DNA from: an uncultured delta proteobacterium
GTDB lineage: Bacteria; Myxococcota_A; Polyangia; Polyangiales; B10-G4
Assembly (NCBI GenBank): GCA_963727445.1
Contig: CAVSGI010000013.1
Location: 1-17,315, forward strand
Length of the DNA: 17,315 bases
Reading direction: 5' to 3'
The notes under the pieces are model-generated. The model saw nothing but the letters and a program-made list of their open reading frames with translations. It searched no databases and was not told where the DNA came from. The position numbers and the translations under genes were made by a program. This document shows positions 378 through 17,315 of this stretch, piece after piece (position 1 is the stretch's first letter; every line of letters starts with the position of its first letter).

Positions 378-1552
378 TGCCGCGTAACGGTCAAATGTGG
401 TGAATCCACCTCCGGCAAGCTCAAAGGCGGAGCGAGCTGGTCGAGGGAGCGATCGAACGCTTGGATCTCCTGGCGTAGATAGTCTCGTGCCTCCCTGAAA
501 TCATCGACAGCGAGACCAAAACGATCCGCGAACTGGCTAGCTGTGTCCGACGACCACTCGGTTTCGTTCCACAGTTCAGTGAGTCGCTTCCTCACACTGT
601 CGAAGTTTGTATCGACGAGAATGGCCTCCGTGGATTGGAAGGTCTCCTCATTCGCGAGCGCGGATGGCTGGACGCCGGACTCTCGGTAGACATCGATGGC
701 CGCGCGCGCGCGAGAAGAGAGCGGTGGTGCAGTGCAGAGCGCCGTCGACTGAGAAGACGCACCGAGCAAGGCGTCGTACAGGCCATCCTCCCCCCCGACG
801 AGCAGATGGACCGCACTCGCGCGGGACTGAAGGGGCGCTGAGAATGCCATCGTCGCGGCGGTCCGCGACGTCGCGTGCTCCGAGAAGTAGGCGTCAGCGA
901 GGGCGAGTTCGTTGTTGGCCGCCGACGTACCAGCTTCCTTTGCGAGTTCAAATGCCTCGACGATGGCCATCGAAAGTGAACGACCAAGCGACTCATCGCT
1001 TGTGCCAGCTGGGTCGGTCAACTCTGCATCAGTACATGTCCCGGCACCACCCAGCCCGCCCGCCATGTGAAGCTCAGTCGTCGCGGTCTCCACGGCCATT
1101 CGTGCTTCGTCCATGGCCAAGCGTTGAAGCGCTGCATTGGTGGCGGTGCTTTGGGCTGGGACCTCCCATTGTATGGTCTCGAGCACCACAGGCTCGGAGA
1201 CAATCCCGGCCATCTCCATCAACAGTTGTGCGGTACAGATGTGGCGATAGGCAAGGCAATGTGCGGCTGTACAGGCCGATGTTCCCGGACAATAGGGATT
1301 GAGGGGGTCGGCCAGGTAGGTTTCGCCTAGACGGCATTCCTTGTCGACGTCACTGATTATGTCCGCGGGGTCAACGTTGCGAACCTCTCCTGTTGTGAGT
1401 TCGATGTAGCGTACGGCTTGTCGCCGACGAAGCTGCTCGAAGCCAGGCGCTTTGGATTCTCGCAGAGAGAGATCGTTCGTCGGTCCGCATGAGAGGAGCG
1501 CGCAACCACTGGTGAGCGCAACGAACGCTAGTACTCTCTTTCGCATGGTCAT
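371..1552 (-). CDS. hypothetical secreted lipoprotein (Ala/Ser/Thr-rich, about 393 aa)
   Basis: ORF 371-1576. The internal start MTMRKRVLAFVALTSGCALLSC (ATG at 1552-1550) gives a signal peptide plus lipobox and overlaps the upstream gene stop (1551-1549) as ATGA. GC is lower (about 58%) than the rest of the window. No known domain recognised. Confidence 0.55.
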   Translation of the reverse strand: MTMRKRVLAFVALTSGCALLSCGPTNDLSLRESKAPGFEQLRRRQAVRYIELTTGEVRNVDPADIISDVDKECRLGETYLADPLNPYCPGTSACTAAHCLAYRHICTAQLLMEMAGIVSEPVVLETIQWEVPAQSTATNAALQRLAMDEARMAVETATTELHMAGGLGGAGTCTDAELTDPAGTSDESLGRSLSMAIVEAFELAKEAGTSAANNELALADAYFSEHATSRTAATMAFSAPLQSRASAVHLLVGGEDGLYDALLGASSQSTALCTAPPLSSRARAAIDVYRESGVQPSALANEETFQSTEAILVDTNFDSVRKRLTELWNETEWSSDTASQFADRFGLAVDDFREARDYLRQEIQAFDRSLDQLAPPLSLPEVDSPHLTVTRQW

Positions 1553-2763
1553 CGGACTTCTCCTGAACGCGCACACCGCACTGTGAAGAACTGCTCTAGG
1601 TGGGGATCGACCTGTCGCCGGCTAACGTGAAAGTAGGCTTCGATGGCCCCTGAACGGGGCGACCCGCGCACCATGAACTCGCCAAACGTGGTGGGCCCGG
1701 TCGGATCCATCAGCGAAGCGGGATCGGAGTAATAGGACGCGCCATATACGTCCGACACGCGGTCCAAACCGCCTCCGACCATCAGGTCGACGCCGTAATA
1801 GCTTCTGACCCCCGGGAGTCCGTCAATGGCGAAGGGAATCTCCTCGACCGAAGGCGTGTAGCCGCAGGGGAACGCTGGCAGTGCCGTGCAGTCAAAGGCT
1901 GTGCCCTCCCAGGGATAGGGTTGGGCTCGGGGCGCGGGGCCTCGAGCAGCCTTCTCCCACTCTGCCTCGGTGGGAAGTCGACGCCCATCCCATTCGCAGA
2001 AGGCAATCGTCTGGGGTCGACTCAATCCCTGGACCGGATAGTTGCCACGAGTTGGATCGGCGAGAGACGTCGCGCCGGGTGAGTACGCGGGCAAGGAACA
2101 AACGCCGGAATCGACACACTGCTGATACCTGGCATTCGACACGGGAAACCTGTCGATGTAGTAGGCGGACAAGATAACTTCTGCGACCGGCTGCGCATCA
2201 TCGAACATCTCGTCGCCGCGCACGAACGGGCCGCTCGGAATGCAGAGCTCTTCTGCTTCGGCAGGGCTGGTGCGACGCGATGTCCCGCAAGGATCGACGC
2301 ACATCTCCACGCCCCAGGAGCAATCCGCCTGACACTCACGATGGCTCTCCTCATTTGGTCCGCACCCAGAGGGATTTGTTTCCATATCCCCGGGCCGACA
2401 CTCACCGTCCGGAGCAACCTCTTCCCAAGCGCCCCACTCACAGGACGATGAGCACGTCCGAACTTGCTCCCCGCAGAGCTCACTCGTTTCTGATTCGGTC
2501 GCGCCCGCTTCGCACTCTCCCTCATTCATGCAGCCGCCCGGCATCTGCCATCGACCATCGTCCCCGCAGAGCTGCTCCGCCTCTCCACACATCCCACAGA
2601 GCACACGCTGGATGGTCCCGGGAGCACAGGGGGGTAGCGCGTCAGGCGTGCTCACATCTGCCGCCGTGGTCGAGTCGGCGGCATCCGACATGCTCGAGTC
2701 CGGCAACGCGTGCGAACCGTCACCACAAGCAGTCAGCGCCGCGAGGAAGACGAGCGCACTCAT
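1549..2763 (-). CDS. lipoprotein with an N-terminal Cys-rich region and a C-terminal FGE-sulfatase (SUMF1 / formylglycine-generating-enzyme family) domain, probably non-catalytic
   Basis: MSALVFLAALTACGDGS is a signal peptide with a lipobox (start 2763, ATGA overlap with the upstream stop at 2760-2762). A Cys-rich segment (several CxxC/CGxC) follows. The C-terminal ~250 aa carry FGE-sulfatase hallmarks: RLPTEAEWEKAARG and a terminal MVRGSPRS...FTVRCA block (cf. RVxRGGSW...GFRC). The expected CxxxxC catalytic pair next to the RGGS block is not present. Confidence 0.8.
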   Translation of the reverse strand: MSALVFLAALTACGDGSHALPDSSMSDAADSTTAADVSTPDALPPCAPGTIQRVLCGMCGEAEQLCGDDGRWQMPGGCMNEGECEAGATESETSELCGEQVRTCSSSCEWGAWEEVAPDGECRPGDMETNPSGCGPNEESHRECQADCSWGVEMCVDPCGTSRRTSPAEAEELCIPSGPFVRGDEMFDDAQPVAEVILSAYYIDRFPVSNARYQQCVDSGVCSLPAYSPGATSLADPTRGNYPVQGLSRPQTIAFCEWDGRRLPTEAEWEKAARGPAPRAQPYPWEGTAFDCTALPAFPCGYTPSVEEIPFAIDGLPGVRSYYGVDLMVGGGLDRVSDVYGASYYSDPASLMDPTGPTTFGEFMVRGSPRSGAIEAYFHVSRRQVDPHLEQFFTVRCARSGEVR

Positions 2764-4067
2764 CGCTTCCTCCACCAAAGCAGCAGGAACAGCGCGAGCG
2801 TCGGCAACAGCGACAGCCCCGCTCGACCGCTCGCCGAGCATCCGGATGAAGCCGGCGGTCGACAGACCAGCTCGGCATCGACGTCACCGCATACGAGCCC
2901 TACGGGGCAGTCGGTATCATCAGCACATCCTCGCGTGCAGGTAGCTCGACCATTGCCATCGTCGAGGCAGAGATCCGACACACACTCATCTGCGGTCTCA
3001 CACGCCTCGCCGAAGACACCGCCATCGGGCATGCACACATCCCCGGCACAATGAGTCCGCGCTGGGCAATCTGAGTCACTGGCGCAATCGGCCGCGCAGT
3101 AGCCGCCTTCGGTGCAGAGCCCAGATGCACAACCATCGGCAGAGTCACATGGATCGCCGAATCCAGCACCGACGCGGGTGCAGTGGCCGAACGCACATGA
3201 GGACCCTCCGGAACAGTCGGCATCTGTCATGCACTCGGGAGAACCGAGCTGGCGCACGCAGGATCCTTCCTCGCACACCTCATCCGCCGCACAGATGCGG
3301 CCACCGCAACCGTCGACGCATCCATCGGCAGAACACGCCATCCCCGACGGACAACCCTCGACAGCGCATGCACTGGCCGGGTAGAGGAAGCATGCTCCCG
3401 CGATATCATCCGACGACAGCACGCGAGCAGTCGGGCCACGGTAAAGCGGGTACATCGTCGTTTCAGCAAACCCTTCGTCGGTCGAGCACAGAGGTGCGCC
3501 GTCTGCACCGTCCGGCTCGCAGGGATGCATCAGCCCCAGGAGGTGACCCAGCTCGTGGGTCAGAACCGCTGTGAGATCGCGTGGGTCATCGGGTCCCGCC
3601 CCACCATCCTCTCGCCATTCGTAGTCTGCGGCGTTCAGATAGACGTCCGCTTCGACGATGCGCCACTGCCCATCCGAATCCTGCTCATACAGGACGTCGG
3701 TTGTCGCCGCGCCATCGGCAGCGAATCCATGGGAGGACCAATTGGCAAAGATCCACTGAACGGTGTTGTATCCGTCGTTCGGCTCGACCTCGCGGGAGGA
3801 GATGCCCCCATAGCGGATGACGGCCGTCGAGCAGGAAACCTGCCCCCAAGTTTCGCGGGCCTGACCGAGCGCTCGCTCAACGTCCACCGTGGAGACGCCC
3901 GGAACGCTGGCTGGAAAATGGCGTAGCTCCGGGGGGTCCGACCACCCAACGGCCTGATCGTCCGGGATCTCAGCCAGATCGGCGGCCGTCCGATACGCAG
4001 CAGCCGAATTCGGTGTCGCAAGACCGACGACAACGAGGAAAGCGGCTATCCAGGGCAGCCTGCTCAT
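2760..4067 (-). CDS. secreted matrixin-like (metzincin, M10-like) zinc metalloprotease with a Cys-rich C-terminal region and a MYXO-CTERM-type sorting tail
   Basis: N-terminal signal peptide MSRLPWIAAFLVVVGLATPNSAAA. Zinc-binding motif HELGHLLGLMH (HExxHxxGxxH) followed by a Met-turn TMYP. Then about 170 aa with many CxxGxC cysteine pairs. The C-terminus GCSASGRAGLSLLPTLALFLLLWWRKR* is a Cys/Gly motif plus a hydrophobic helix plus basic residues, which is the MYXO-CTERM pattern. The ATG at 4067 overlaps the upstream stop as ATGA. Confidence 0.85.
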   Translation of the reverse strand: MSRLPWIAAFLVVVGLATPNSAAAYRTAADLAEIPDDQAVGWSDPPELRHFPASVPGVSTVDVERALGQARETWGQVSCSTAVIRYGGISSREVEPNDGYNTVQWIFANWSSHGFAADGAATTDVLYEQDSDGQWRIVEADVYLNAADYEWREDGGAGPDDPRDLTAVLTHELGHLLGLMHPCEPDGADGAPLCSTDEGFAETTMYPLYRGPTARVLSSDDIAGACFLYPASACAVEGCPSGMACSADGCVDGCGGRICAADEVCEEGSCVRQLGSPECMTDADCSGGSSCAFGHCTRVGAGFGDPCDSADGCASGLCTEGGYCAADCASDSDCPARTHCAGDVCMPDGGVFGEACETADECVSDLCLDDGNGRATCTRGCADDTDCPVGLVCGDVDAELVCRPPASSGCSASGRAGLSLLPTLALFLLLWWRKR

Positions 4068-4609
4068 CGCGCAGCGTCCAGAAGTTGCGTCACACGGGAC
4101 AGAGTCGATCGAGGCCTGTGATGAAGCGCGTCCGCAGGGGGAAGGGCCTGGAGCACAGGACCCGCGTCGCTCTCGACCATGTGCCAGACCTCACCGCCTG
4201 CACTCGTCGAGACGAACCCACCCCCATCAAGCCGGGTCAGGAACACAACGACGTTGGAGCCAACGGAGAATCGCTGGCCGTGGCTTAGAACGCGGAGCTG
4301 ATCCCCATAGCGACCGCCGGGGACCCAGAAATGCACGATGTCGCCCATCTCATGGTCTGTGGATATGGGGTGAGTGACACGGAGTTCGACGCGTGTGTGG
4401 ATTCCCGGGGTGTTGTTGGGGCCTGTTGCCTGAGCAACCGTTTCAGCAACTACCCCCGCGATGACGACGTCGGCATTTTCAACGAGGACCGCGAGCTCGT
4501 CCCGACGGTCTCTGAGGGAAACTCGACTCGTGCGAGATGCATCGTTGCACCCGATGGCGACGAGCAAAAGCAGCCCGACCGCGAGGAGGTCGCGAAGTCG
4601 ACAGTCCAT
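4064..4609 (-). CDS. hypothetical small lipoprotein (181 aa), translationally coupled to the metalloprotease gene
   Basis: MDCRLRDLLAVGLLLLVAIGCNDAS is a signal peptide with a lipobox cysteine. Its stop at 4064-4066 overlaps the ATG of the protease gene (4067-4065). No known domain recognised. Confidence 0.6.
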   Translation of the reverse strand: MDCRLRDLLAVGLLLLVAIGCNDASRTSRVSLRDRRDELAVLVENADVVIAGVVAETVAQATGPNNTPGIHTRVELRVTHPISTDHEMGDIVHFWVPGGRYGDQLRVLSHGQRFSVGSNVVVFLTRLDGGGFVSTSAGGEVWHMVESDAGPVLQALPPADALHHRPRSTLSRVTQLLDAAR

Positions 4610-4676
4610 GGACCGTCGACCATCGCACCGCTTCGGAAAACCTCTCCTATCAGATCATGTAGGTAGTCACGTGTGG

Positions 4677-4706
4677 GCGTATCACGTTCCGCACGTGCCA
4701 CCGCTC
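4677..4706. promoter_or_regulatory. pair of CACGTG hexamers (plus a CACGTT) in the promoter region of the 181-aa lipoprotein / metalloprotease sub-operon
   Basis: In the only sizeable gap inside the minus-strand cluster (4610-4707), the sequence reads gtCACGTGtgggcgtatCACGTTccgCACGTGcc. CACGTG is also the core of the 22-bp palindrome at 8740-8761. Confidence 0.3.
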
Positions 4707-4707
4707 G

Positions 4708-6936
4708 CTACGGCACTGGGTCGTTCATGCCCACGACGAAGAACTGATCGTCACTGGTCGTCTCGGGCAGGTTGATGTGCCCGACGAGCACGCCGGTGAC
4801 GTAGTAGCCGGCCAGGCCGATGTCGCCGGTGGCGTTGATGTCGATGCCGTGGACGAAACCCGCGTCGCGGCGTAGCTCGCCACTCTGCAACAGCGCCACG
4901 TAGTCGAGCGCACCGGCGGAGGTGTAACGGGCGACGAAGCCGTGATCGCGGCCCGGGGTGGTTGCCCCGTCGTAGGCGTAGTCGCCATTGCTGCCGCCGA
5001 CGACGATGGGCGCGCCACTCGAGGTGAGGACCAGGTCCCGGGGCTCGACGGTGCCGGTGCCCATCGTGGCGGGAATGGACCAGTTCAGGGTGCCATCATA
5101 CGCGTAGCTCTCGAGGAGCGCGTCGCTGGTTGCGACGTAGATGTTGGCGCTGGTCACCTCGACGCCGGCTGGGACGTCCACACCGGAGGTGCTGAGCTGG
5201 ATTTGTTGCTGGAAGGTGCCGCCGGCTGAGTAGCGGACGACGAAGCCGTCGCGTCCGTCGGGCGTCAGCGCTCCTCCACCGAAATCGGTCATCCCGTCGA
5301 AGTATCCGGCAACGAAGACCTGGCCGGCCGCATTTCGCGCGACATGCAGCGGCGTACCCGGCAGTCGCCAGCTCGCCACGTGAGCGCCGCTCGAATCGTA
5401 GTGTGCGACGAAGCCAAAGTCCGTTCCGCCAGTGGCGCGGTTGCCGCCACCGAAGTCGAAGTCGCCGGCGAGTATGCCAACAGCGAAGACGCCCCCGGCC
5501 CCGTCGGGGACGACCCCACGAACGTCGTCGGTGGAGCTCGCGGTGTGTAGGCGCTTGGCCCAAAGGGGCGTGCCCGTCGAATTGAGCTTGGCCACGATGC
5601 CGTCGACGCCCGTGGTGCTCGTCACCGTGATCCCGGCCGACCCACCGAAGCGGATGGACTGGCTGAACTTGCCACCCCAGAACATGTTGCCGCTCGAATC
5701 CAGCTCGAAGGCGTACTGCTGGATGAGCCCCGTGGACGTCGTCCGATCGATGTCGGTTCGAGTGACGTAGGTCCCACCATCATCCCATTCGATGATGTGA
5801 TGGTGGCTACTGCCCGTGAAGGTCTCGCTTCCGGCGCCGCTGGGATCGCTGTACGAGCCGCGCATGGCCACCGCAACGAGGACCGATCCGGCCGAGGTGA
5901 CGCCGACCCGCTCGTACTCGGCCTGCGGATGGGTGTCCGCGGTGCGATACCTTCGCGCCCAGGTCACCTCCGGCCGGCAGATGCTGGCGCCGCAGGTGCC
6001 GCCGACGATGCATCGGAATCCACAGGACCCGCAGTTTGCGTCGTCGGAGCTGGTGTCGGTGCAGGCGCCTGAACAGTCCGCGGTACCCGCGGGGCAGGCG
6101 CAGGTACTCGAAGCACACGTCGCGCCCGTCGAGCACGCCATGTCGCAACCGCCGCAGTGCGCTGGATCGGTCGATGTGTCTGCACAGGTGCTGCCGCAGA
6201 GTGTGGTCCCCGCACCGCATTCGCACGTTCCCGCGACGCACGTCTCGGTGGTGAAGCACCCCACCCGACATCCGCCGCAATGGGAGCTGTTGGAGGTCGT
6301 GTCCACACAACCAGCGGTTCCACAGTCCGTCAGGCCCGTGGGACACGTGCAGGCGCCGGCAACGCATTCATACATCCCCGCGCAGGTCGCGGAAGGCCCA
6401 TCCACCGTGCCATCGCAATCGTTGTCGACGCCGTCACAGGCCTCCGAGGCGCCCGGATGGACGCCAGGATCCGAATCGTCACAGTCCGTGCCGCCGCAGA
6501 CGACCGCCGGGTCCCCGTCGGCGTCACCATCGAGCGGAACGTATTGGCAGAGCCCGCGCGAGGCGTCGCAGCGTACGAACACCCGACACGGATCGGTGGT
6601 TGGGCACTCGGCGTCGGACGTACAGGGGGTTCCCGCGACGCATCCGGCCGACAAGTCGCAGACCTCGCTCGGCGCACAGAGGGTGTCATCGAGCGCGTGG
6701 ACGCACGCCCCGCTCTCGCAGCTGTCGTTGGTGCAATCGTTTCCATCGTCGCAGTCGAGGGTGAGGCAGGGATCGGTCGTACCACTGTCCATTGCGTCTG
6801 GGCCGGAGTCGGCAGAGGCCCCGGAATCCGCATCGAGCGACGCGTCCGCGTCGAGCGCTGCATCGACTGCGGCGTCGTCGCCGCCACATCCAGCGATGGC
6901 GAACAAGCACAGAGCCGCGACTCGTGTCACCGACAT
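4708..6936 (-). CDS. large Cys-rich lipoprotein: Myxococcus-type Cys repeat, MopE-like putative metal-binding motif, HCGGC-type Cys repeats, and a C-terminal SBBP beta-propeller
   Basis: ORF 4708-6972. The likely start MSVTRVAALCLFAIAGCGG (ATG 6936) gives a lipoprotein signal. Motifs present: DCDDGNDCTNDSCESGAC (Myxococcus Cys-rich repeat); DGDADGDPAVVCGGTDCDDSDPGVHPGASEACDGVDNDCDGTVDG (PF11617-like MopE motif); five ~35-aa repeats with HCGGCxxxC / NCGSCGxxC. The C-terminal ~420 aa carry repeated DFGGG...GFV(A/V)(H/R)Y(D/S)SxG blocks typical of SBBP beta-propeller repeats. Confidence 0.8.
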   Translation of the reverse strand: MSVTRVAALCLFAIAGCGGDDAAVDAALDADASLDADSGASADSGPDAMDSGTTDPCLTLDCDDGNDCTNDSCESGACVHALDDTLCAPSEVCDLSAGCVAGTPCTSDAECPTTDPCRVFVRCDASRGLCQYVPLDGDADGDPAVVCGGTDCDDSDPGVHPGASEACDGVDNDCDGTVDGPSATCAGMYECVAGACTCPTGLTDCGTAGCVDTTSNSSHCGGCRVGCFTTETCVAGTCECGAGTTLCGSTCADTSTDPAHCGGCDMACSTGATCASSTCACPAGTADCSGACTDTSSDDANCGSCGFRCIVGGTCGASICRPEVTWARRYRTADTHPQAEYERVGVTSAGSVLVAVAMRGSYSDPSGAGSETFTGSSHHHIIEWDDGGTYVTRTDIDRTTSTGLIQQYAFELDSSGNMFWGGKFSQSIRFGGSAGITVTSTTGVDGIVAKLNSTGTPLWAKRLHTASSTDDVRGVVPDGAGGVFAVGILAGDFDFGGGNRATGGTDFGFVAHYDSSGAHVASWRLPGTPLHVARNAAGQVFVAGYFDGMTDFGGGALTPDGRDGFVVRYSAGGTFQQQIQLSTSGVDVPAGVEVTSANIYVATSDALLESYAYDGTLNWSIPATMGTGTVEPRDLVLTSSGAPIVVGGSNGDYAYDGATTPGRDHGFVARYTSAGALDYVALLQSGELRRDAGFVHGIDINATGDIGLAGYYVTGVLVGHINLPETTSDDQFFVVGMNDPVP

Positions 6937-7973
6937 CCGCTGCTCCCATAACAGATCTGCCCCGCTCGACACGGCAGGCCGGAGCTACCGCAGACGCACG
7001 TGCCTGCGCGACAGCAATCCGAGGTCCACGAGCAGGAGTTCCCACACATCCCGCAATCGTCGGCCGACGATGTGGTGTCGACGCAACTCCCCGAGCAGCA
7101 CGAGAGGCCCGACGCGCACACGTTTCCGCACGCGCCGCAGTTTGCGTCGTCCATCTGCAGGTTCACCTCACATCCATCGCCCCGGGCCCCATTGCAATCC
7201 TCGTAGCCCATCCGGCACGAGCCGAAGACGCAGGTCCCGGAAACGCAGGTGCGGAAGGTCCCGGAGATGAGACAGTCGACGTTGGCGTCCTCGTCAGTCG
7301 CTCCGTCGCAGTCGTTGTCCGCCCCATCGCAGATCTCCGTTGCGCCCGGATAGGTGTCCGCGTTCGTGTCGTCGCAATCCGTCGCCGGTCGGTCTCCCCC
7401 CGTGCACGTGGCATCCAGATCCACGAAGCCGTCGTCGTCACGGTCCTCCGCCGGATCGTTGCCTCCGCCCGAGCTGCAGTCGTCGTCGAGCCCGTTGCAG
7501 ATCTCGTCTGCACCCGCATAGACATCGGGATTCGAGTCATCGCAGTCCGCGCCACCGCAGGCAGCAGCGGGATCTCCGTCCCCGTCACCATCCATCGGGG
7601 GGTACTCGCAGAGACGGGTAGCTTCGTTGCAATGATCGAGGGTGCAGCTGTCTCCATCCGTACAGTCGGAGTCGGTCGCGCAGATGCGAGGCCCCGTGTC
7701 GACACGGCGTGTGTCCGGCGCGGCATCCGTGGACGAGGCATCGGCATCGCCAGCGGTCGCGTCGGTCACGCTGGAGTCCGGGACGCTCGCGTCCATGTCA
7801 CCACAGAGACAGGGCGAGAACGTGCCTTCCGACGTGCACTGCTGGGTTCCTGTGGTTCTGCCGGGACACGGACACTCGAGAGTCCGTCCTTCTACACAAG
7901 CCGCGCTCCCGTCGCCGCACGCAGCGGCCAGCGCGGGGATGACGAACACGAGAACGACTCGCGCTTCAGTCAT
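6927..7973 (-). CDS. Cys-rich lipoprotein with three MopE-like putative metal-binding motifs and C-terminal CGxCGNxC repeats
   Basis: MTEARVVLVFVIPALAAACGDGS is a lipoprotein signal. Three copies of the DGDGDGDP..CGG.DCDD..P...GA.EICDG.DNDCDG..DE pattern are present. The C-terminal repeats NCGACGNVCASGLSCCSGSC / DCGMCGNSCSWTSDCC are paralogous to repeats in the downstream 754-aa protein. The ATG at 7973 overlaps the LuxR gene stop (8-nt ATGACTGA overlap). Confidence 0.75.
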   Translation of the reverse strand: MTEARVVLVFVIPALAAACGDGSAACVEGRTLECPCPGRTTGTQQCTSEGTFSPCLCGDMDASVPDSSVTDATAGDADASSTDAAPDTRRVDTGPRICATDSDCTDGDSCTLDHCNEATRLCEYPPMDGDGDGDPAAACGGADCDDSNPDVYAGADEICNGLDDDCSSGGGNDPAEDRDDDGFVDLDATCTGGDRPATDCDDTNADTYPGATEICDGADNDCDGATDEDANVDCLISGTFRTCVSGTCVFGSCRMGYEDCNGARGDGCEVNLQMDDANCGACGNVCASGLSCCSGSCVDTTSSADDCGMCGNSCSWTSDCCRAGTCVCGSSGLPCRAGQICYGSSGCR

Positions 7974-8628
7974 GGATCTCCATGTTGTAGAACAGCCACG
8001 TCAGCTCCTCTCGCCGCTTCACGCCGACGCGCTCGCGCAGCTGACTGAAGTGGAAGTTCTTCGTGGAGAGCTTCACGCCGAAGACGTGCTCCATGTCCGC
8101 GTAGGGGATCTCGCGGTCGAGGAGATCGATGTACTCGAGCTCTGTCGGGGTCAGGCCGTACCGTTGCCCGAACAGCTCGACCCTGGTTCGCCGCCTGATC
8201 GGGTCCTTGGCGCCTAGCACCGAGGCGTATCGGACGGCACGCCAGGTCGCGTCGACTCCGGTCTCGTGGGAGATGCATCTCGCGCGCAGGCGCAGGGCTT
8301 GCCGCCGAGTCTCGCGATCATCCTCGTGAACCACGGCCGCGCTGATCAGGTGCCGATTTAGCCGCCGGAGCGCGGCGAGTGGCTCCAAGCACGATTCGGG
8401 CGAGCCATTTTGTCGAACCACGAGACCACGAACGTCTTCGGGCGACTCGTGGAGGATTCTGGTGGCCTCCGCCGCTTTTGCGCGACGCAATCGCAGACGG
8501 TTATCCGAAAGGTCGTCGCATTCTTCGCCGAACCCATCCCCCACCAGAAGGAGGAGATGGCGCGCGACGGCACGGTGGGTCCCAGATCCGCCCTCGGGCG
8601 GGTCCGCCTCATCAATAACTCCCGACAC
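7966..8628 (-). CDS. LuxR/GerE-family transcriptional regulator (C-terminal HTH; N-terminal ~150 aa of unknown type)
   Basis: C-terminal LTPTELEYIDLLDREIPYADMEHVFGVKLSTKNFHFSQLRERVGVKRREEL matches the LuxR-type HTH (LTxRExEVL..L..G.S...IA..L.IS..TVK.H...I..KLGV..R.EL). It is the first gene of the minus-strand cluster, preceded by a ~640-bp intergenic region rich in palindromes. Confidence 0.8.
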   Translation of the reverse strand: MSGVIDEADPPEGGSGTHRAVARHLLLLVGDGFGEECDDLSDNRLRLRRAKAAEATRILHESPEDVRGLVVRQNGSPESCLEPLAALRRLNRHLISAAVVHEDDRETRRQALRLRARCISHETGVDATWRAVRYASVLGAKDPIRRRTRVELFGQRYGLTPTELEYIDLLDREIPYADMEHVFGVKLSTKNFHFSQLRERVGVKRREELTWLFYNMEIHD

Positions 8629-9288: not shown

Positions 9289-9374
<86 letters not shown>

Positions 9375-9625
9375 GTGGGGAGCGCTCAGATAGGCCGTGC
9401 TCGGGCTGCTGTCAATGTCTGCATGCGTTGGCGTGGGGAGTGCTGGGCTGCGGGGGGCGGGCTTGGCTCTCGGTGTGATTCCGCGGGGTTGGTCCGGGAG
9501 GGGGGGCCGAAAAAAATGCATAGTCCTGCAGGGGATGCGGACCGGGCCTCGTGGGAAAGGGGGAGTTCTCTTCTGATTTCGAGGGATTGAGTGCGGTATG
9601 CGCATTGCACCGACCGGCCCTCGAT

Positions 9626-10306
9626 ATGGTCCGTCCTGTAGAGAAGCGTGCGCTTGGCTTGTGGGGGGCTGCTCGCCCCCCTCACGGCCCCCCCGACCCC
9701 AAGCGGGCCGGCTTCACGCTCACCGAAATGATGATGGTGGTGACCATCATCGCCATCACGGCAGGGTTGGCGGCGCCCGCGATGTACAACGCCTTCGCCG
9801 AACGGCGCACCGCGACCGCACCCATCGACTTCATCCGGATGGTGCGGCGGGGTCGCTCCGAGGCCATGGCCTACGGTCGCGCCCACCTCATCCGCTTCTC
9901 CTCCAGCTCGCCCGGGAGCTTCATGCTCTACCGCGGGGTGAGCTCGAGCTGCGTCGGCAACGACTGGACGGCGATCATCCCGACGAGCTCCACCAACCCC
10001 TGCGGCGAGCCCGGCAGCGACAACCAGATGTGCATCGAAGAGATGCGCCTCGGCGGCTCGTACTACACCACCGGCTCCCTCTCGGTGCACGCGACCGAGT
10101 CGAGCGCGGCCAGCGACGTCGACCTCTGCTTCGAGCCCGACGGCCGGACCCTCTTTCGCAAGTCCACGAGCGCCACGCTCACCTCGGACAACACCATCAA
10201 CGGCGGCCTGATCTTCAACTTCCGCCGTTACGACAGCGGCGCGCCCATCGGCGTCGTCCGCCAGGTCGTCGTCCCCCTGGGCGGCGACGCGAGGTTGATG
10301 CGATGA
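9626..10306 (+). CDS. type IV pilus minor pilin / pseudopilin, FimU/FimT/GspH-like (prepilin-type N-terminal methylation domain)
   Basis: The prepilin motif KRAG|FTLTEMMMVVTIIAITAGLAAP has Gly at -1, Phe at +1, Glu at +5 and a hydrophobic helix. It is the first gene of the minor-pilin operon. The exact start is ambiguous: ATG 9551 and ATG 9626 give unusually long leaders, and TTG 9659 is also possible. The stop overlaps the next gene start as ATGA. Confidence 0.65.
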   Translation: MVRPVEKRALGLWGAARPPHGPPDPKRAGFTLTEMMMVVTIIAITAGLAAPAMYNAFAERRTATAPIDFIRMVRRGRSEAMAYGRAHLIRFSSSSPGSFMLYRGVSSSCVGNDWTAIIPTSSTNPCGEPGSDNQMCIEEMRLGGSYYTTGSLSVHATESSAASDVDLCFEPDGRTLFRKSTSATLTSDNTINGGLIFNFRRYDSGAPIGVVRQVVVPLGGDARLMR

Positions 10307-10881
10307 CGCGCCGCCGCCGCACGCAGGAACAGGGCTACACCCTCATCGAGGTCATGATGGCGGTCGCGATCATGACCGTCGGCTCGGTGGGCATCTTCTC
10401 GCTCCACACGGCCACCACCAACGGCAACCGCCTCGCGCGCGAGACCTCGACGGCGGTGGACCTCTCTCGCCTCTACCTCGAGCGCGCCCGGCGCGACGCC
10501 CTGATGTGGAACGCGTCGGGCAACGTCACCTCCACCGAGCTCCTCACGAACGTCGCCGTCTCGGGCCTGGGCGACTGGTTCATCCCCAGCCCCACCATCG
10601 GCTCCTACGCCTTCGACTACCAGGGCAGAGACACCAGCACCACCTCCGAGATGTACTACTGCGCCAACATCCGCGTCAGCTGGATCATCGGGCAGGACGC
10701 GGCGCGCGTGGACAGCCGCGTGTGGTGGCGACGCTCGGGCGCTTCGAACCCGCCGCCCTCGTCCTGGGACTGCGACACCGACCCGGCGACCATCACCTCC
10801 GAGCTGGCAGACACCAACCCCGCTCCCCGCATTCACGCGGTCTATGCGTCCACCGTCGTTCGTTGGACGAGGTTGAACTGA
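10303..10881 (+). CDS. PilV-like type IV pilus minor pilin (192 aa)
   Basis: MTRRRRTQEQG|YTLIEVMMAVAIMTVGSVGIFSL is a prepilin leader plus an N-terminal helix with Glu at +5, typical of PilV. The ATG at 10303 overlaps the upstream stop. Its own stop (10879-10881) overlaps the next ATG (10881). Confidence 0.75.
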   Translation: MTRRRRTQEQGYTLIEVMMAVAIMTVGSVGIFSLHTATTNGNRLARETSTAVDLSRLYLERARRDALMWNASGNVTSTELLTNVAVSGLGDWFIPSPTIGSYAFDYQGRDTSTTSEMYYCANIRVSWIIGQDAARVDSRVWWRRSGASNPPPSSWDCDTDPATITSELADTNPAPRIHAVYASTVVRWTRLN

Positions 10882-12093
10882 TGACCCGACGCGAGCACAT
10901 CCGCCGCCGGCGGCACGCAAAGAACGCCGGCTTCACCCTGGTCGAGCTGATGGTGGCGCTCGCCGCCGGCGCCATGGCCATCTCCAGCATCTACTTCGTG
11001 AGCGCCTCCTCCAGCCGGCACTTCCACGAGCAGCAGCGCATCGCGCAGAACCAGATGACCCTGCGCACCGCGATGGCCCAGCTCCGCCGCGACTTCTGCG
11101 CGCGCCGGCTACCTGGGCACGCCCAACACGGCCAAGGAAGACGCCTGCGGAACGACGCCGTCCACCTTCAACTTCGGCGCGATCCTGATCGACGACAGCG
11201 CCACCACCTGCGCGCCCAGCGTCACCTGTGGCACGTCGGTCCTGGACGAGCAGACCATCAACGGCGTCCAGGCAGACACGGTCCAGCTCACCGGCAACTT
11301 CGTGACCGGCGACGCCTACAAGGCCAGCGGCACTCAGAGCACCACCCAGCTCATGTTCTCCAAGACCTGGCAGATGTTTCGCCGGTCCTTCGGCGCCGAC
11401 GACCTCGGCGAGTACGACACGGCGCTCTTCGAGTCGGCCTTCGCGCCGGGCCGCTACGTGCAGATCAGCCACGACGCCCGGGGCTACAAGTTCTACGCCG
11501 AGATCGAGTCGGTCGACGGTGGCTCGTCCACCCCGCCCACCGTCACCATCAGCCGCCCCCTCCCCGGCTGCTTCGGCCGCTGTGAAGGATTCGGCTGCAC
11601 CGTCTCCCCCATCAGCCGCATCGAATACGCCGTGCTCGACATGGAGACCGCCGGCAGCCTCAGCGCCCTCGACGTCGGCTCGAGCTCCCCCCTCGCGGGC
11701 GTGCGCGGACCGGTCCTCGTTCGCCGCGAGCTCGACTTCGCCTCCTCCCCGACGCCGGTCGCCAACAGCGAACGCGTGGTCGCCGAGTACGTCGCGAACT
11801 TCGACGTCGACGTCATCAGCAACACCAACGTCTCCTCGGGCACCCCGACCCTGGCGCTGCAAGACGACGCGAGCGCCGCGAGCCTGACCTCGTCCAACCC
11901 CCATCGCGTGCGGAGCGCCGTCATCAGCCTCTCCATCCGCACCCCCGCCGAGGATCCGCGCTTCCCCTTCGTCTCCGGCTCCGGCCTCACCCGCTACGAG
12001 CTCGACCCCGACATCGAAGGCGCCGCCCGCGTCCGCACCAGCACCATCGAGGTGCTCCTCTCCAACGTCGCCGCGAGGGACATCCGCCCATGA
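10881..12093 (+). CDS. PilW-like large minor pilin, reading frame interrupted (frame 0 to frame +1 switch at about 11098-11105)
   Basis: The N-terminus MTRREHIRRRRHAKNAG|FTLVELMVALAAGAMAISSIYFV is a prepilin-type motif in frame 0, readable to ...AMAQLRRDFC near 11097. After that, frame 0 becomes Arg-rich nonsense. Frame 1 is open from 11059 and reads a protein-like ARAGYLGTPNTAKEDACGTT... through to the stop at 12093, joining ORF 11302-12093. The switch maps to a GCGCGCGC tract. A repaired product would be about 403 aa. Confidence 0.65.
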
Positions 12094-12776
12094 AGAAGAC
12101 CAGCCGAAGGAAGCTGCGCAGCAAGTGGCGCAGGCAGAGCGACCGCGAGGGCGCGGCGATGCTCATCGTGATGCTGCTGCTCCTCACCACCACCTCACTC
12201 GCGGTGTTCGCCGTGCAGGCGACCAGCTACGAGGTTCGCGCTTCGGGCTTCGCCCGCCAGTCGATGCAGTCCGAATACGTCGCGGAGGCGGGGCTCACCT
12301 CGGTCCTCACCGTCGTCGACAAGCTCGGGCCCCAGGCCATCCTCTACGCCATTCAGCAGCAGCAGGCGAACCCCACCACCTACCCGCCCCCGGTGATGTC
12401 GCCCTTCGAGCCGGAGCTCGCGACCAGCGCCACCAGCACCCGACCTGCCGAGGCCTATCGCATGCAGAGCGAGGACCTCTCGAGCTTCACCACCACCGGC
12501 ACCGAGCCGGTGGACCGCGCCGCCATCGGCGCGCGCCAGACCTACGAGCCTTCCTTCGCCGTCGACATCTACGACCACCACATCACGTCGCGTCCGATCC
12601 CTGGCTACCCGGTGGGCAGCGGCGGCTTGTCTTTCTTCCACGCCATCTACACGTCTCGCGGCCGCATGCGGCTCGACGGTGGTGACACCGCCGTGAGCGG
12701 CCCGGACCCCCGCCAGTACCACGAGACCGCCAGCGCCGCGCGCGCGTACGGCGTCTCAGGACCGTTCGCACGATGA
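12090..12776 (+). CDS. PilX-like type IV pilus minor pilin (PilX N-terminal domain)
   Basis: MKKTSRRKLRSKWRRQSDREGAAMLIVMLLLLTTTSLAVFAVQATSYE resembles the PilX_N pattern (basic leader, ..G(A/S)xLIVxLLLL..hydrophobic..). Position 4 in a fimU-pilVWX-pilY1 order. The ATG at 12090 overlaps the upstream TGA. Confidence 0.7.
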   Translation: MKKTSRRKLRSKWRRQSDREGAAMLIVMLLLLTTTSLAVFAVQATSYEVRASGFARQSMQSEYVAEAGLTSVLTVVDKLGPQAILYAIQQQQANPTTYPPPVMSPFEPELATSATSTRPAEAYRMQSEDLSSFTTTGTEPVDRAAIGARQTYEPSFAVDIYDHHITSRPIPGYPVGSGGLSFFHAIYTSRGRMRLDGGDTAVSGPDPRQYHETASAARAYGVSGPFAR

Positions 12777-15700
12777 AGCAGCGCCCCAGAATCCGAAGGA
12801 GTCTCGAGATGGATCGCTTGCGTCGCCTCATGCTCGCCGCAGCAGGCCTGGCCCTCGGGCTGGCTCTCGCTGCCGGCACGGCAAGCTCGGCAGAAGCACA
12901 ATCGGCGCCGGACCTCAGGAACATTCGTCCGATGGTCACGCTCCTCATCGACACCTCGGGATCGATGGAGCGCACGGCTGGCTGCACCTGCGTGACGGCG
13001 TCGTGCCGCGAGTGTCTGCCGGACTGCAGCGTGCCCGACTACAACAAGTGGTCGGTCCTCCTCGAGGCCTTCACCGGCACCTTCGACACCTTCTCCTGCA
13101 CCGAGGTCGCGCGCAGCACCTACGCCGGCGACTACGACGCGGGCTACTTCATCCCCCACTACGAGCCGCCCGTCGGCATCTCCACCCAGCAGTCCAACGG
13201 CATCATGGACGTCTACGTGGACCGCATCCGCTTCGCCCTGATGACCTTCGACGGCGTGAGCACCCTGACCACCCAGAACACCCTCGTCCCCGACTCCGCC
13301 TGGACCGTGGCCTTCGAGAACAACAGCGCCGGCGTGCTCGGGATGTACTCCTACGGTGGGTCGAAGCTCTTCAATTTCCTCGGGTGTGCGACCGACTACC
13401 GCCTCGACAACGGCGCCCGTAACGACTCCGACGACGGGAGCGGCAACTACGTCCCCGGCAATCTCATCTCGATGGGGAACAGCAGCGACGACCACACCGT
13501 CGTCAATGCCGCCATCCAGAACGCACTGCTCGGAACCCGCCCCTTCGGCCCCACTCCGATCGCGGGGATGCTCTCCGACTACGAGTACTTCCTCGCCAAC
13601 GACCCGGACCTCCAGCTGCCGACGACGGTCGGCGGCGCTGGCGACGCGTACGCCAACTGCCGCCCCCGCTTCGCCATCCTGGTGACCGACGGCTATCCGA
13701 ACGCCGACATGCGGGGCCTGCCGTACCAGTGCGATGCGTCGGGTTACACCTGCCCCTACGACCTGCCCCAGGACACGGCGGCTCGCCTCTGCGACTACGA
13801 CTCCCTCGACGGCGCGTGCACGGGTGACGTCGACGGCGTCTTCGTCGTCGGTTTCAACGTCTCGGACAGCACCGCCGTGACCACCCTCGACGGCATCGCG
13901 GCCGCGGGCGGGACCACGGAGGCCTACTACGCCACCGACCGCGACACGCTGGTCGCGGCCCTCTCGACCGCCCTCGACTCCGCGGCGCCCGGCGCCACCA
14001 GCCGTACGGTGCCCGCCTTCGTGTCGAGCGCTTCGGTGACGAGCAGCTCGGCGAAATACCAGTTCAACGCCGGCTTCAAGGTCGGCGGCATCAGCGGCAC
14101 CGATCCGTGGGCCGGCGTCATCGAGCGCAAGCGCTACCAGTGCTGCGCCGACTCCGTCTGCTCCGGGCCGGGCACCCTGGTCGTCGAGCAGGCCGTCTCC
14201 TCCGCCGACAACGACACCTTCCACGAGGTGCTCACCGCGCGCACCACCGATCGAAACCTCTACACCGTCCTGCCCACCACCAACGGCAACGAGACCGGGT
14301 GGCTGACCAACACCGCGGACGCCGACATCCCCAGCACGCGCGTCCCGGGCACCAGCGTCACCGCAGTCACCAACGGCCAGACCGGCGGCTCGCCCGACGA
14401 GGAGAACCTCGACGTCACCATCCTCGAGACCAGCACCGGCGGCGGCAGCGTCACCTACACCAACCTAGCGGCCGCCGACCTCGCGGAGGCCGACGCAGTC
14501 CTCGACTGGGTCTACGCCCGTGGCAGCGCGGCGTCGGGTCGACTCGCCAACCGACTTGGCGACATCTACCACTCCTCCCCCCTCGTGGTGAGCGCACCGC
14601 GCATCGACCGCACCGACGAGGCCTTCAACCTCTTCCGCCGCCAGGGCGACGTGGTGGCTCGGCCGACGGTCCTCTACGTGGGCACCAACGACGGCATCCT
14701 CCACGCGTTCGCGGTCGAAGAGCACGACGTCAACACCGTCTGTGGCCAGATCCGCGAGAAGTCGACCGCCTGTACCCACACGGCCTACAACTCCACCAAC
14801 CCCATCACGGCAGGCGAAGAGCTGTGGGGCTTCGTACCGCCGCTGCTCGTGCCCAAGTTGAAGGACGCGAGCGTCTCTCACCAGTGGATGGTGGACGGCT
14901 CGCCCGTCGTGAAGGACATGTACTACGCGCGCGTCCTCGGTGACGCGCCCCTGGCCAGCGAGTACCACACGGTGCTGGTGGCGGGCCTGCGCAACGGCGG
15001 CTCCGGGGTCTACGCTCTCGACGTGACCGACCCCATCACCGAGGCCTCCGGTTCGACCGCCGGCAGCCACGTCTTTCAGCCGCCCAAGTTCCTGTGGCAG
15101 TTCAGCGACTCCGACATGGGGGAGACCTACGGCACCCCGGCGCTGGCCGAGGTCCTGGTGAACGAGTCGGGCACCCTGGTCGCGCGCGCGGTCGCGATCA
15201 TCCCTGGCGGCAAGGGTTCCGCCACCGGCGACCCCTCCGCCTCGCTGAGCACCAACCAGCTCTCGGTCAGCGACGTCACCGGCGCCCGCACCGAGCGCAG
15301 CGAGTACGACACCGTCGGCCGCTCCCTCTATGTCGTCGACGTCGCGACCGGCCGCCTGCTTCGAAAGTTCGACAGCACCATCCTCACCGCGCCCATGACC
15401 GGCGCGGTCGCTGCGTACCCGGGGGACGTGGGCCAGGTCGCAGACCGCGCCTTCATGACGGACGCGGACGGCGTGATCTGGCGCCTCGACATGTCGGACC
15501 CCGATCCGGCCAACTGGAGCGTCATCGCCTTCCACGACATCTTCCACGACCAGGCCAACGTCTTCAGTCAGCCCGCCTACAACGCGCCGATCCTCTCCGT
15601 CGACGATCAGGGCGACCTGGTGGTGCTCCAGGCGACGGGTGACATCGACATCCTCGATGGCACCGACTTCAACCGCGTCGTCTCCCTCACCGAGAACCTG

Positions 15701-16278: not shown

Positions 16279-16806
16279 ATGCGGAGCGTGATGCGCATGG
16301 CGCCGATCCTGATCGCGATCGCTTCGCTCGGCCTCGCCGCCTGCGGTGACGACGACGGGGAGCGCCCGCCGGCCCCGGTCGTCCAGGAAGTCCAGCCGCC
16401 GGCGCCCGAAGACGACCCCGAGAGCCTCTACGACCGCGAAGGCAATCTCCTCGAGAGCGACGTCGTCGTCGCCGGGCTCACGCTGCCGCGCGGTCTCGAT
16501 GCGGCAGGCGAGATGGACCGCTTCCACGCCTATCGGAGCTCGGTGCCGATCGGGAAGCTTCAGGCCTACTTCGGGCCGCGGCTCATCACCGGGCAGGTCG
16601 ATCAGCACGGCTCGGGGGCCGTCTATCGCGAGGCCGTGCCCCGCGAGGCGCGCGGCGGCATCGTGAAGATGGACGTCGCCATCATCCCGATGAGTCAGGT
16701 CGCCACCCGCATCGAGATCCGGGAGATCCCGCCGGTGCCCGAAAACCCGCCGAGCGAAGCGGACGTGGTCCAGCACTGGAACGAAGAGCAGCCGCAGCTG
16801 GACTGA
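16279..16806 (+). CDS. hypothetical small lipoprotein (about 175 aa)
   Basis: MRSVMRMAPILIAIASLGLAACGDDDG is a signal peptide with a lipobox. A G-rich candidate RBS (GGGGGTAGG) lies just upstream of the ATG at 16279. No recognisable domain. Confidence 0.55.
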   Translation: MRSVMRMAPILIAIASLGLAACGDDDGERPPAPVVQEVQPPAPEDDPESLYDREGNLLESDVVVAGLTLPRGLDAAGEMDRFHAYRSSVPIGKLQAYFGPRLITGQVDQHGSGAVYREAVPREARGGIVKMDVAIIPMSQVATRIEIREIPPVPENPPSEADVVQHWNEEQPQLD

Positions 16807-16807
16807 G

Positions 16808-17315
16808 CTAGCCCCGCATGCGCAGGATCTGATCGATCGACTCGCGGGCAGCGCCGGTCTCGTTGGCGGCGGCGCGTCTCAGCAGATTGCCGACCTCGGG
16901 CAGATCCGCGTTGGCGAGGAGCCGCCGGACGAGCTCCCGCTCGTTCTTGTCGCCGTGGCGCAGCACGTCGATGAGCAGCTCGGCGGCGTCGACGCTCTGG
17001 ATCTTCCCGATCGACTCGAGCGCCGTGCGCCGCACCGTGACGTCGCTCGACTCGCGGTAGATTCTTGCGAGCGGGTCGAAGGCGTGGCCGAAGTGGAGCG
17101 CGGCCACCGCGGCGAGGGCCTGCTTCTGAACGGCTTCGTCCTCGTCCTTGAGGCCGCGCATCACCAGGATGAAGCTCCGCTTGAAGAAGAGCTGGCGCAC
17201 GGCGCGGAGCACCGCCTCGCGCACGCGGCCGTCCTCGTGGCCGTACATCTTCTCGAGCGGCGACAGGGAGGCGTAGATCTCCACGCGGCCGAGCTCGTGG
17301 GCGAGGCCCACCAGG
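16808..17315 (-). CDS. HEAT-repeat (PBS-lyase HEAT-like) protein, C-terminal part; the N-terminus lies beyond the window end
   Basis: Repeated ~30-aa helical units with the A..ALG.IG....V..L...L.D.D..VRR.A pattern (ALESIGKIQSVDAAELLIDVLRHGDKNERELVRRLLANADLPEVGNLLRRAAANE). The ORF is open to the window edge. Confidence 0.6.
   Translation of the reverse strand, partial: LVGLAHELGRVEIYASLSPLEKMYGHEDGRVREAVLRAVRQLFFKRSFILVMRGLKDEDEAVQKQALAAVAALHFGHAFDPLARIYRESSDVTVRRTALESIGKIQSVDAAELLIDVLRHGDKNERELVRRLLANADLPEVGNLLRRAAANETGAARESIDQILRMRG

Follow-up and report, generated by a model that had tools for sequence, protein, structure and literature searches.

The window (the whole stretch of DNA analysed, 17,315 nt) contains a normal PilW-position minor pilin gene within a fimU/gspH-pilV-pilW-pilX-pilY1 operon of an uncultured Polyangia-like bacterium of the Myxococcota. 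The GC content of the window is approximately 61–70%, with 68% for the genome. The genes of the operon and the features of the interrupted pilW-like gene are these:

9626–10306, plus strand: GspH/FimU-like minor pilin, intact; has the N_methyl motif and matches GspH weakly; 37 related loci match it in a single frame
10303–10881, plus strand: PilV-like minor pilin, intact; weak match to TIGR02523 (PilV); single-frame matches to related loci
10881–11096, plus strand: N-terminal 72 codons of the PilW-like minor pilin, from the frame 0 translation, ending ...AQLRRDF
11098, plus strand: extra G, the lesion itself; the sole gap in a 3,614-column alignment with the independently assembled contig L044
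11098–11105, plus strand: (GC)4 tract, GCGCGCGC, within the codons of a conserved [S/A]-R-A
11099–12093, plus strand: C-terminal 331 codons of PilW, in frame +1, reading RAGYLGTPN...ARDIRP and a stop
11302–12093, plus strand: annotated ORF of 263 aa (P0002), from the gene caller of the source record (NCBI and ENA, contig of 505,600 nt)
11583–11585, plus strand: premature TGA in frame 0, from translation, closing the ORF 10506–11585
12090–12776, plus strand: PilX-position gene, intact; its product (P0121) is identical in L044
12773–16237, plus strand: PilY1-like protein, intact; Pfam T4P_PilY1 (PF05567) at 40.7 bits; matched in a single frame by 34–38 loci
16279–16806, plus strand: predicted lipoprotein after the PilY1-like gene; in-frame matches in 22–25 related loci

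The overlapping start and stop codons suggest that the genes are translationally coupled from the GspH/FimU-like gene through to PilY1. The stop codon of the PilV-like gene overlaps the start of pilW (TGATG, 10879–10883) and the ATG of the pilX-position gene overlaps the pilW stop (ATGA, 12090–12093), with overlaps of the same two kinds at the other operon junctions (10303–10306 and 12773–12776), so that they are present at all of them. The gene order fimU/gspH-like, pilV-like, pilW, pilX, pilY1 is kept in L001, in L044 and in approximately 35–40 related loci; the gene call at 278–958 of L044 corresponds to the GspH/FimU-like gene. The 427 aa ORF at 9598–10881 is over-extended: the PilV-like gene is the one real gene in that frame, and the GspH/FimU-like gene is read in another.

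Immediately upstream of the minor pilin operon there is a tRNA-Leu(CAG) gene on the minus strand (9289–9374), inside which L044 ends. The same stretch is matched at 70–84% in several of the related loci (L007, L013, L023, L030, L031), which marks the tRNA gene as a conserved neighbour of the operon. At the other end, directly after the PilY1-like gene, the predicted lipoprotein (MRSVMRMAPILIAIASLGLAACG...) has no Pfam or NCBIfam family in the profile searches and may be an uncharacterised accessory protein of the myxobacterial minor-pilin/PilY1 cluster. It is followed on the minus strand by a HEAT-repeat protein (16808–17311, HEAT_2 at 68 bits), which is cut off by the end of the window.

The left part of the window carries other genes on the minus strand. 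Two overlapping genes at 1549–4067 encode an FGE-sulfatase-domain protein (approximately 404 aa as called on L045, a second independent contig), in which the domain match covers profile positions 3–138 of 255 only, and an M10/metzincin-like metalloprotease of 435 aa. The adjacent genes at 4708–6972 and 6927–7973 encode Cys-rich predicted lipoproteins with STIG1-like repeats and putative metal-binding motifs of the MopE type. The larger of the two proteins (4708–6972) has a long C-terminal region without a family match. A GC-frame plot for further frameshifts proved too noisy to be informative in this half of the window. That the minus-strand ORFs between 4708 and 8628 are fragments of one split gene was considered and rejected, as 4708–6972 and 6927–7973 each have a lipoprotein-type signal peptide; 7966–8628 is a separate ORF with no signal peptide.

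The name PilW-like is positional and rests on the position, size and N-terminus of the product, since no PilW-specific profile was matched above its cut-off. Read in frame 0 from the ATG at 10881, the protein begins MTRREHIRRRRHAKNAGFTLVELMVALAAG...LRRDFC. This is a typical prepilin N-terminus (MTRREHIRRRRHAKNAGFTLVELMVALAAGAMAISSIYFVSASSSRHFHEQQRIAQNQMTLRTAMAQLRRDF), in which a hydrophobic alpha-1 helix comes after the prepilin motif (G|FTLxE; NAGFTLVELMVALAAGAMAISSIYFV). The segment 10881–11096 carries the prepilin cleavage/methylation motif and the alpha-1 helix, and it is 100% identical to L044. Residues 14–38 match Pfam N_methyl (PF07963) at 28.1 bits, against a cut-off of 21.2, and TIGR02532 is matched at 23.4 bits, against a cut-off of 16.3. 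In the Pfam profile search no PilW family was found at E<=0.01, and the best NCBIfam match, PRK10557 (prepilin peptidase-dependent protein), covers the N-terminus only and scores 25.6 bits against a cut-off of 120.

The reading frame of the PilW-like gene (10881–12093) changes at 11097–11100, at the 5' edge of the GC tract. Past the Cys codon, frame 0 gives Arg/Pro-rich nonsense up to the TGA at 11583–11585. Frame +1 reads ARAGYLGTPNTAKEDACG... and continues uninterrupted to the stop TGA at 12091–12093. When ORFs from the related loci were compared with the window by tblastn, 42 of the 43 gave two collinear HSPs that pass from window frame 3 to frame 1 at 11093–11101, and a frame break of this kind is far beyond chance. 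Each of the neighbouring operon genes, and the downstream lipoprotein, is matched in a single frame by 22–42 loci in the same searches. An earlier, sequence-only reading had described a break from frame 0 to frame +1 at the (GC)4 tract and had held that the PilW-like gene alone was affected; the translations and the tblastn matches bear out the break, and the single-frame matches of the other operon genes bear out its restriction to pilW. The annotated P0002 is a headless C-terminal fragment, with neither a signal peptide nor an alpha-1 helix.

A search with the repaired protein returned 133 homologues, nearly all of them full-length at 370–430 aa. They come from Myxococcota, Polyangiales or Sandaracinaceae MAGs, and several are named 'PilW family protein' by NCBI. 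The protein alignment has 20 rows, made up of 19 full-length homologues and the window's own C-terminal fragment (P0002). In every homologue RRD[FIV] and RAGY are separated by a single residue, which may be S, A, G, E or Q. A single codon is likewise seen at this place in 42 related loci, all 42 of which read across the junction in frame. Ser occupies this position in about a third of the related loci and is among the commonest residues there. In the closest relative (L001/L002), which has approximately 79% amino-acid identity, there is GGT where the window has TGCG. The frame +1 half of the window gene is 78% identical to P0001/L001 over residues 81–407, and the two halves are 79% identical to P0001, with no other frame break. 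The coding segment of the frame +1 half (11099–12093), which opens with the last two bases of the Ser codon, has no other lesions and is identical to L044.

The lesion is an insertion of one nucleotide rather than the loss of a GC unit, since the window has 4 nt where the homologues have one codon. Two repairs had been put forward from the window by itself. The restoration of a GC unit gives DFCARAGY, which opens a one-column gap in all 19 full-length aligned homologues and has one residue more than any of them or of the 42 loci, and the loss of a unit was rejected because the repair adds a residue absent from every homologue. The deletion of the T at 11097 (DFARAGY) is, from the window alone, equally parsimonious and matches L028. 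This proposal was right as to the kind of change, a single base, but L044 shows that the base in question is the G at 11098 and that the sequence is DFSRAGYLGTP, in a product of 403 aa. The alignment with orthologues that had been suggested as a check, having one residue per homologue at the junction, shows a one-base repair to be the conserved one.

The intact form of the gene is found in an independent assembly. Contig L044 of the Logan collection (3,613 nt, run ERR11594398) was found via the exact protein of the window's PilX-position gene, and is 99.945% identical to positions 9349–12962 of the window, with exactly two differences. One is a synonymous G/A difference at 10368 (Ala GCG/GCA, in the PilV-like gene), where the window has G and L044 has A. 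The other is a one-base gap, L044 being without the window's G at 11098. The window therefore has TTC T[G]CG CGC GCC where the intact allele has TTC TCG CGC GCC (F-S-R-A); with the extra G the junction is TTCTGCGCGCGCC and without it TTCTCGCGCGCC, and the placement of the extra base within the alternating tract is unique in the comparison of the two. L044 reads on as TTC TCG CGC GCC GGC TAC (F-S-R-A-G-Y, in RRDFSRAGYLG) and encodes an uninterrupted PilW of 403 aa. Both halves of the window's pilW are otherwise identical to this allele.

A second contig from the same run, L045, is 100.000% identical to positions 1387–5715 of the window (4.3 kb). Since L044 and L045 are near-identical to the window, the same strain or population carries an intact pilW. 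Look-ups for the window proteins gave ERR11594398 as the only Logan run beside the source contig, and the source assembly may have been built from the reads of this run. The reverse case, in which L044 is wrong and the window right, was rejected, as an error would have to involve the exact 1–4 nt that restore the frame and also leave an orthologue-like residue. An exact-pattern search of JGI metagenomes for the junction, with or without the extra base, gave 0 matches. Position 10368, which is the only non-indel difference from L044, is the G of a GATC site, and the difference there could be strain variation or a methylation-linked difference in base-calling.

The tract itself is unremarkable. 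GCGCGCGC occurs at chance frequency in the window, which has 6 copies where 4.1 +/- 2.1 would be expected; 6 or more were obtained in 49 of 200 shuffles. GCG CGC GCN is present in frame at the same position in 8 intact relatives (L006, L022, L025, L028, L033, L035, L036, L040), other relatives having TCG CGC GCN at the junction, and among the related loci there is no expansion of the tract and no frameshift at the junction. The alternating tract is a by-product of [A/S]-R-A codons in a GC-rich genome rather than a hypermutable repeat.

It had been suggested from the sequence that the break might be a slipped-strand switch, that is, a contingency locus in which a hypermutable GC tract toggles pilW, and via polarity the operon, between ON and OFF. 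The presence of an ON allele (L044) and an OFF allele (the window) in near-identical backgrounds, differing at the edge of the tract, is what such a switch would produce, and there is a precedent among pilus genes in Neisseria pilC, a PilY1 homologue that phase-varies by means of an intragenic homopolymeric G/C tract (PMC5953494). However, the alleles differ by 1 nt and not by a 2 nt unit, and with one more GC unit the protein would have a residue absent from the full-length aligned homologues and from the 42 related loci. The 4 units are also fewer than the dinucleotide cut-offs of 6 to 8 or more applied in PhasomeIt analyses (PMC5953494), the tract is at chance frequency, and the 8 intact relatives carry a tract of the same length, in frame, as plain Ala-Arg-Ala codons, no relative being expanded or frameshifted. 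The dinucleotide tracts examined in Neisseria showed no repeat-number changes and were excluded for insufficient evidence of phase variation (PMC5953494). A contingency locus is therefore very unlikely here. The allele comparison is one of two consensus sequences, from the window and from L044, and there is similarly little chance that both alleles co-exist in one population and that the single-base indel is a reversible ON/OFF switch of a non-canonical kind, with polar effects on pilX and pilY1. If this were true, the co-existing alleles would switch one minor-pilin/PilY1 set out of the several that this uncultured Polyangia-like myxobacterium has. It could also be supposed that full-length PilW is produced from the sequence as written, by programmed +1 ribosomal frameshifting or transcriptional slippage, given that each half is intact in its own frame and that the shift is +1. 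The probability of this is negligible, and it is effectively refuted by the lack of conservation, as the 42 related loci and L044 are all in frame. On direct reading the sequence has neither a slippery nor a 'hungry' site, since UUC UGC is followed by 160 open codons, and it lacks an in-frame stop, a Shine-Dalgarno-like stimulator and a homopolymer run for transcriptional slippage.

This leaves the origin of the base itself, and on balance the extra G is probably a consensus or polishing error in the 505.6 kb metagenomic source contig. The true gene would then be the intact 403 aa form of the independent assembly, and the superfluous base would have arisen at the 5' end of a short run of alternating C and G that encodes the conserved Ser-Arg-Ala. 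An error is favoured because a near-identical independent assembly carries the intact gene, because this intact allele fits the orthologues in having one residue at the junction, because the lesion is single and there is no secondary decay, and because the source is a very long contig of a type that comes from long-read metagenomics. Polishing with short reads is needed for Nanopore bins of less than approximately 40-fold coverage (PMC9262707), and many supposed pseudogenes of bacteria have turned out to be artefacts of assembly (PMC11017572). Against an error, there is one indel only in the 7.9 kb compared, with no sign that the assembly is generally error-prone. Homopolymers are the classic failure mode of Nanopore sequencing, but the extra G does not lie within one. 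That the G is instead a real and very recent one-base insertion, making the gene a young pseudogene or a strain-level variant, is possible although rather doubtful. The frameshift is present in the deposited consensus, the synonymous SNP at 10368, 730 nt away, fits two closely related haplotypes, and the loss of one minor-pilin/PilY1 cluster would be tolerable. In M. xanthus, cluster_1 or cluster_3 alone suffices, with PilW essential within a cluster (PMC7541494). Two co-existing strains, one of them truly frameshifted, could also be envisaged, since the SNP shows two different consensuses. A real insertion must, however, be set against an intact allele in sequence whose identity to the window, over 7.9 kb, is 100.0% or 99.97%, and against the fact that gene-breaking single-base indels are a known class of artefact in long-read and low-coverage assemblies (PMC11017572, PMC9262707). 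Secondary decay is absent; by the usual signs of a pseudogene, pilW is disrupted relative to intact orthologues but, in comparison with L044, shows no further degenerative changes. Fixed loss of PilW should soon bring decay of the neighbours, given that PilW is essential in its cluster (PMC7541494), and these are all intact.

If the extra G is an error, as favoured here, the public record holds the headless 263 aa P0002 in place of a 403 aa minor pilin. Headless fragments of this kind contaminate protein databases, and because of them a pilus priming operon may seem defective when it is in fact complete. Should the G be real, translation would end at 11583–11585, after 73 native and 161 nonsense residues and 505 nt before the pilX ATG, and this copy of PilW would be inactivated. 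The expression of the translationally coupled pilX and pilY1 would then probably be lower, because the pilX ATG normally overlaps the pilW stop. The allele would in that case be a loss-of-function allele of an ordinary kind and of very recent origin, in a gene family of which myxobacteria often have several redundant sets. Whether it is an artefact or a trivial young mutation, the frameshift is ordinary and raises no new question.

Three known systems can be compared with the locus. The operon resembles that of the FimU-PilV-PilW-PilX-PilY1 priming/tip complex of type IVa pili, as in Pseudomonas aeruginosa and Myxococcus xanthus, in that the protein has the prepilin N-terminal motif and a length of approximately 400 aa, and in that its gene lies between the PilV-like and PilX-position genes and is followed by that of a PilY1-domain protein. 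It differs from type IVa PilW in that no PilW-specific profile is matched above cut-off and in that the family is specific to Polyangia/Sandaracinaceae-like Myxococcota MAGs. Neisseria pilC is the only pilus-related simple-sequence repeat switch worth comparing. As in pilC, a change in length beside a simple-sequence tract disrupts the frame within the coding sequence of an accessory gene of type IV pili, but the window differs in every defining respect: the pilC tracts are homopolymers of at least 9 bases that vary by whole units between isolates, whereas the tract of pilW in the window has 4 units of a dinucleotide, differs between the alleles by half a unit (1 nt), is not expanded in any relative, and occurs at chance level. 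The frameshift matches a well-known class, the gene-fragmenting indel errors of long-read and low-coverage assemblies: here too a gene that is in all other respects perfectly conserved is split by an indel of one base, the gene caller annotates a headless product (P0002, 263 aa), and the gene in an independent assembly is intact. It is unlike the usual errors in that the indel is found beside a run of alternating C and G and not in a homopolymer.
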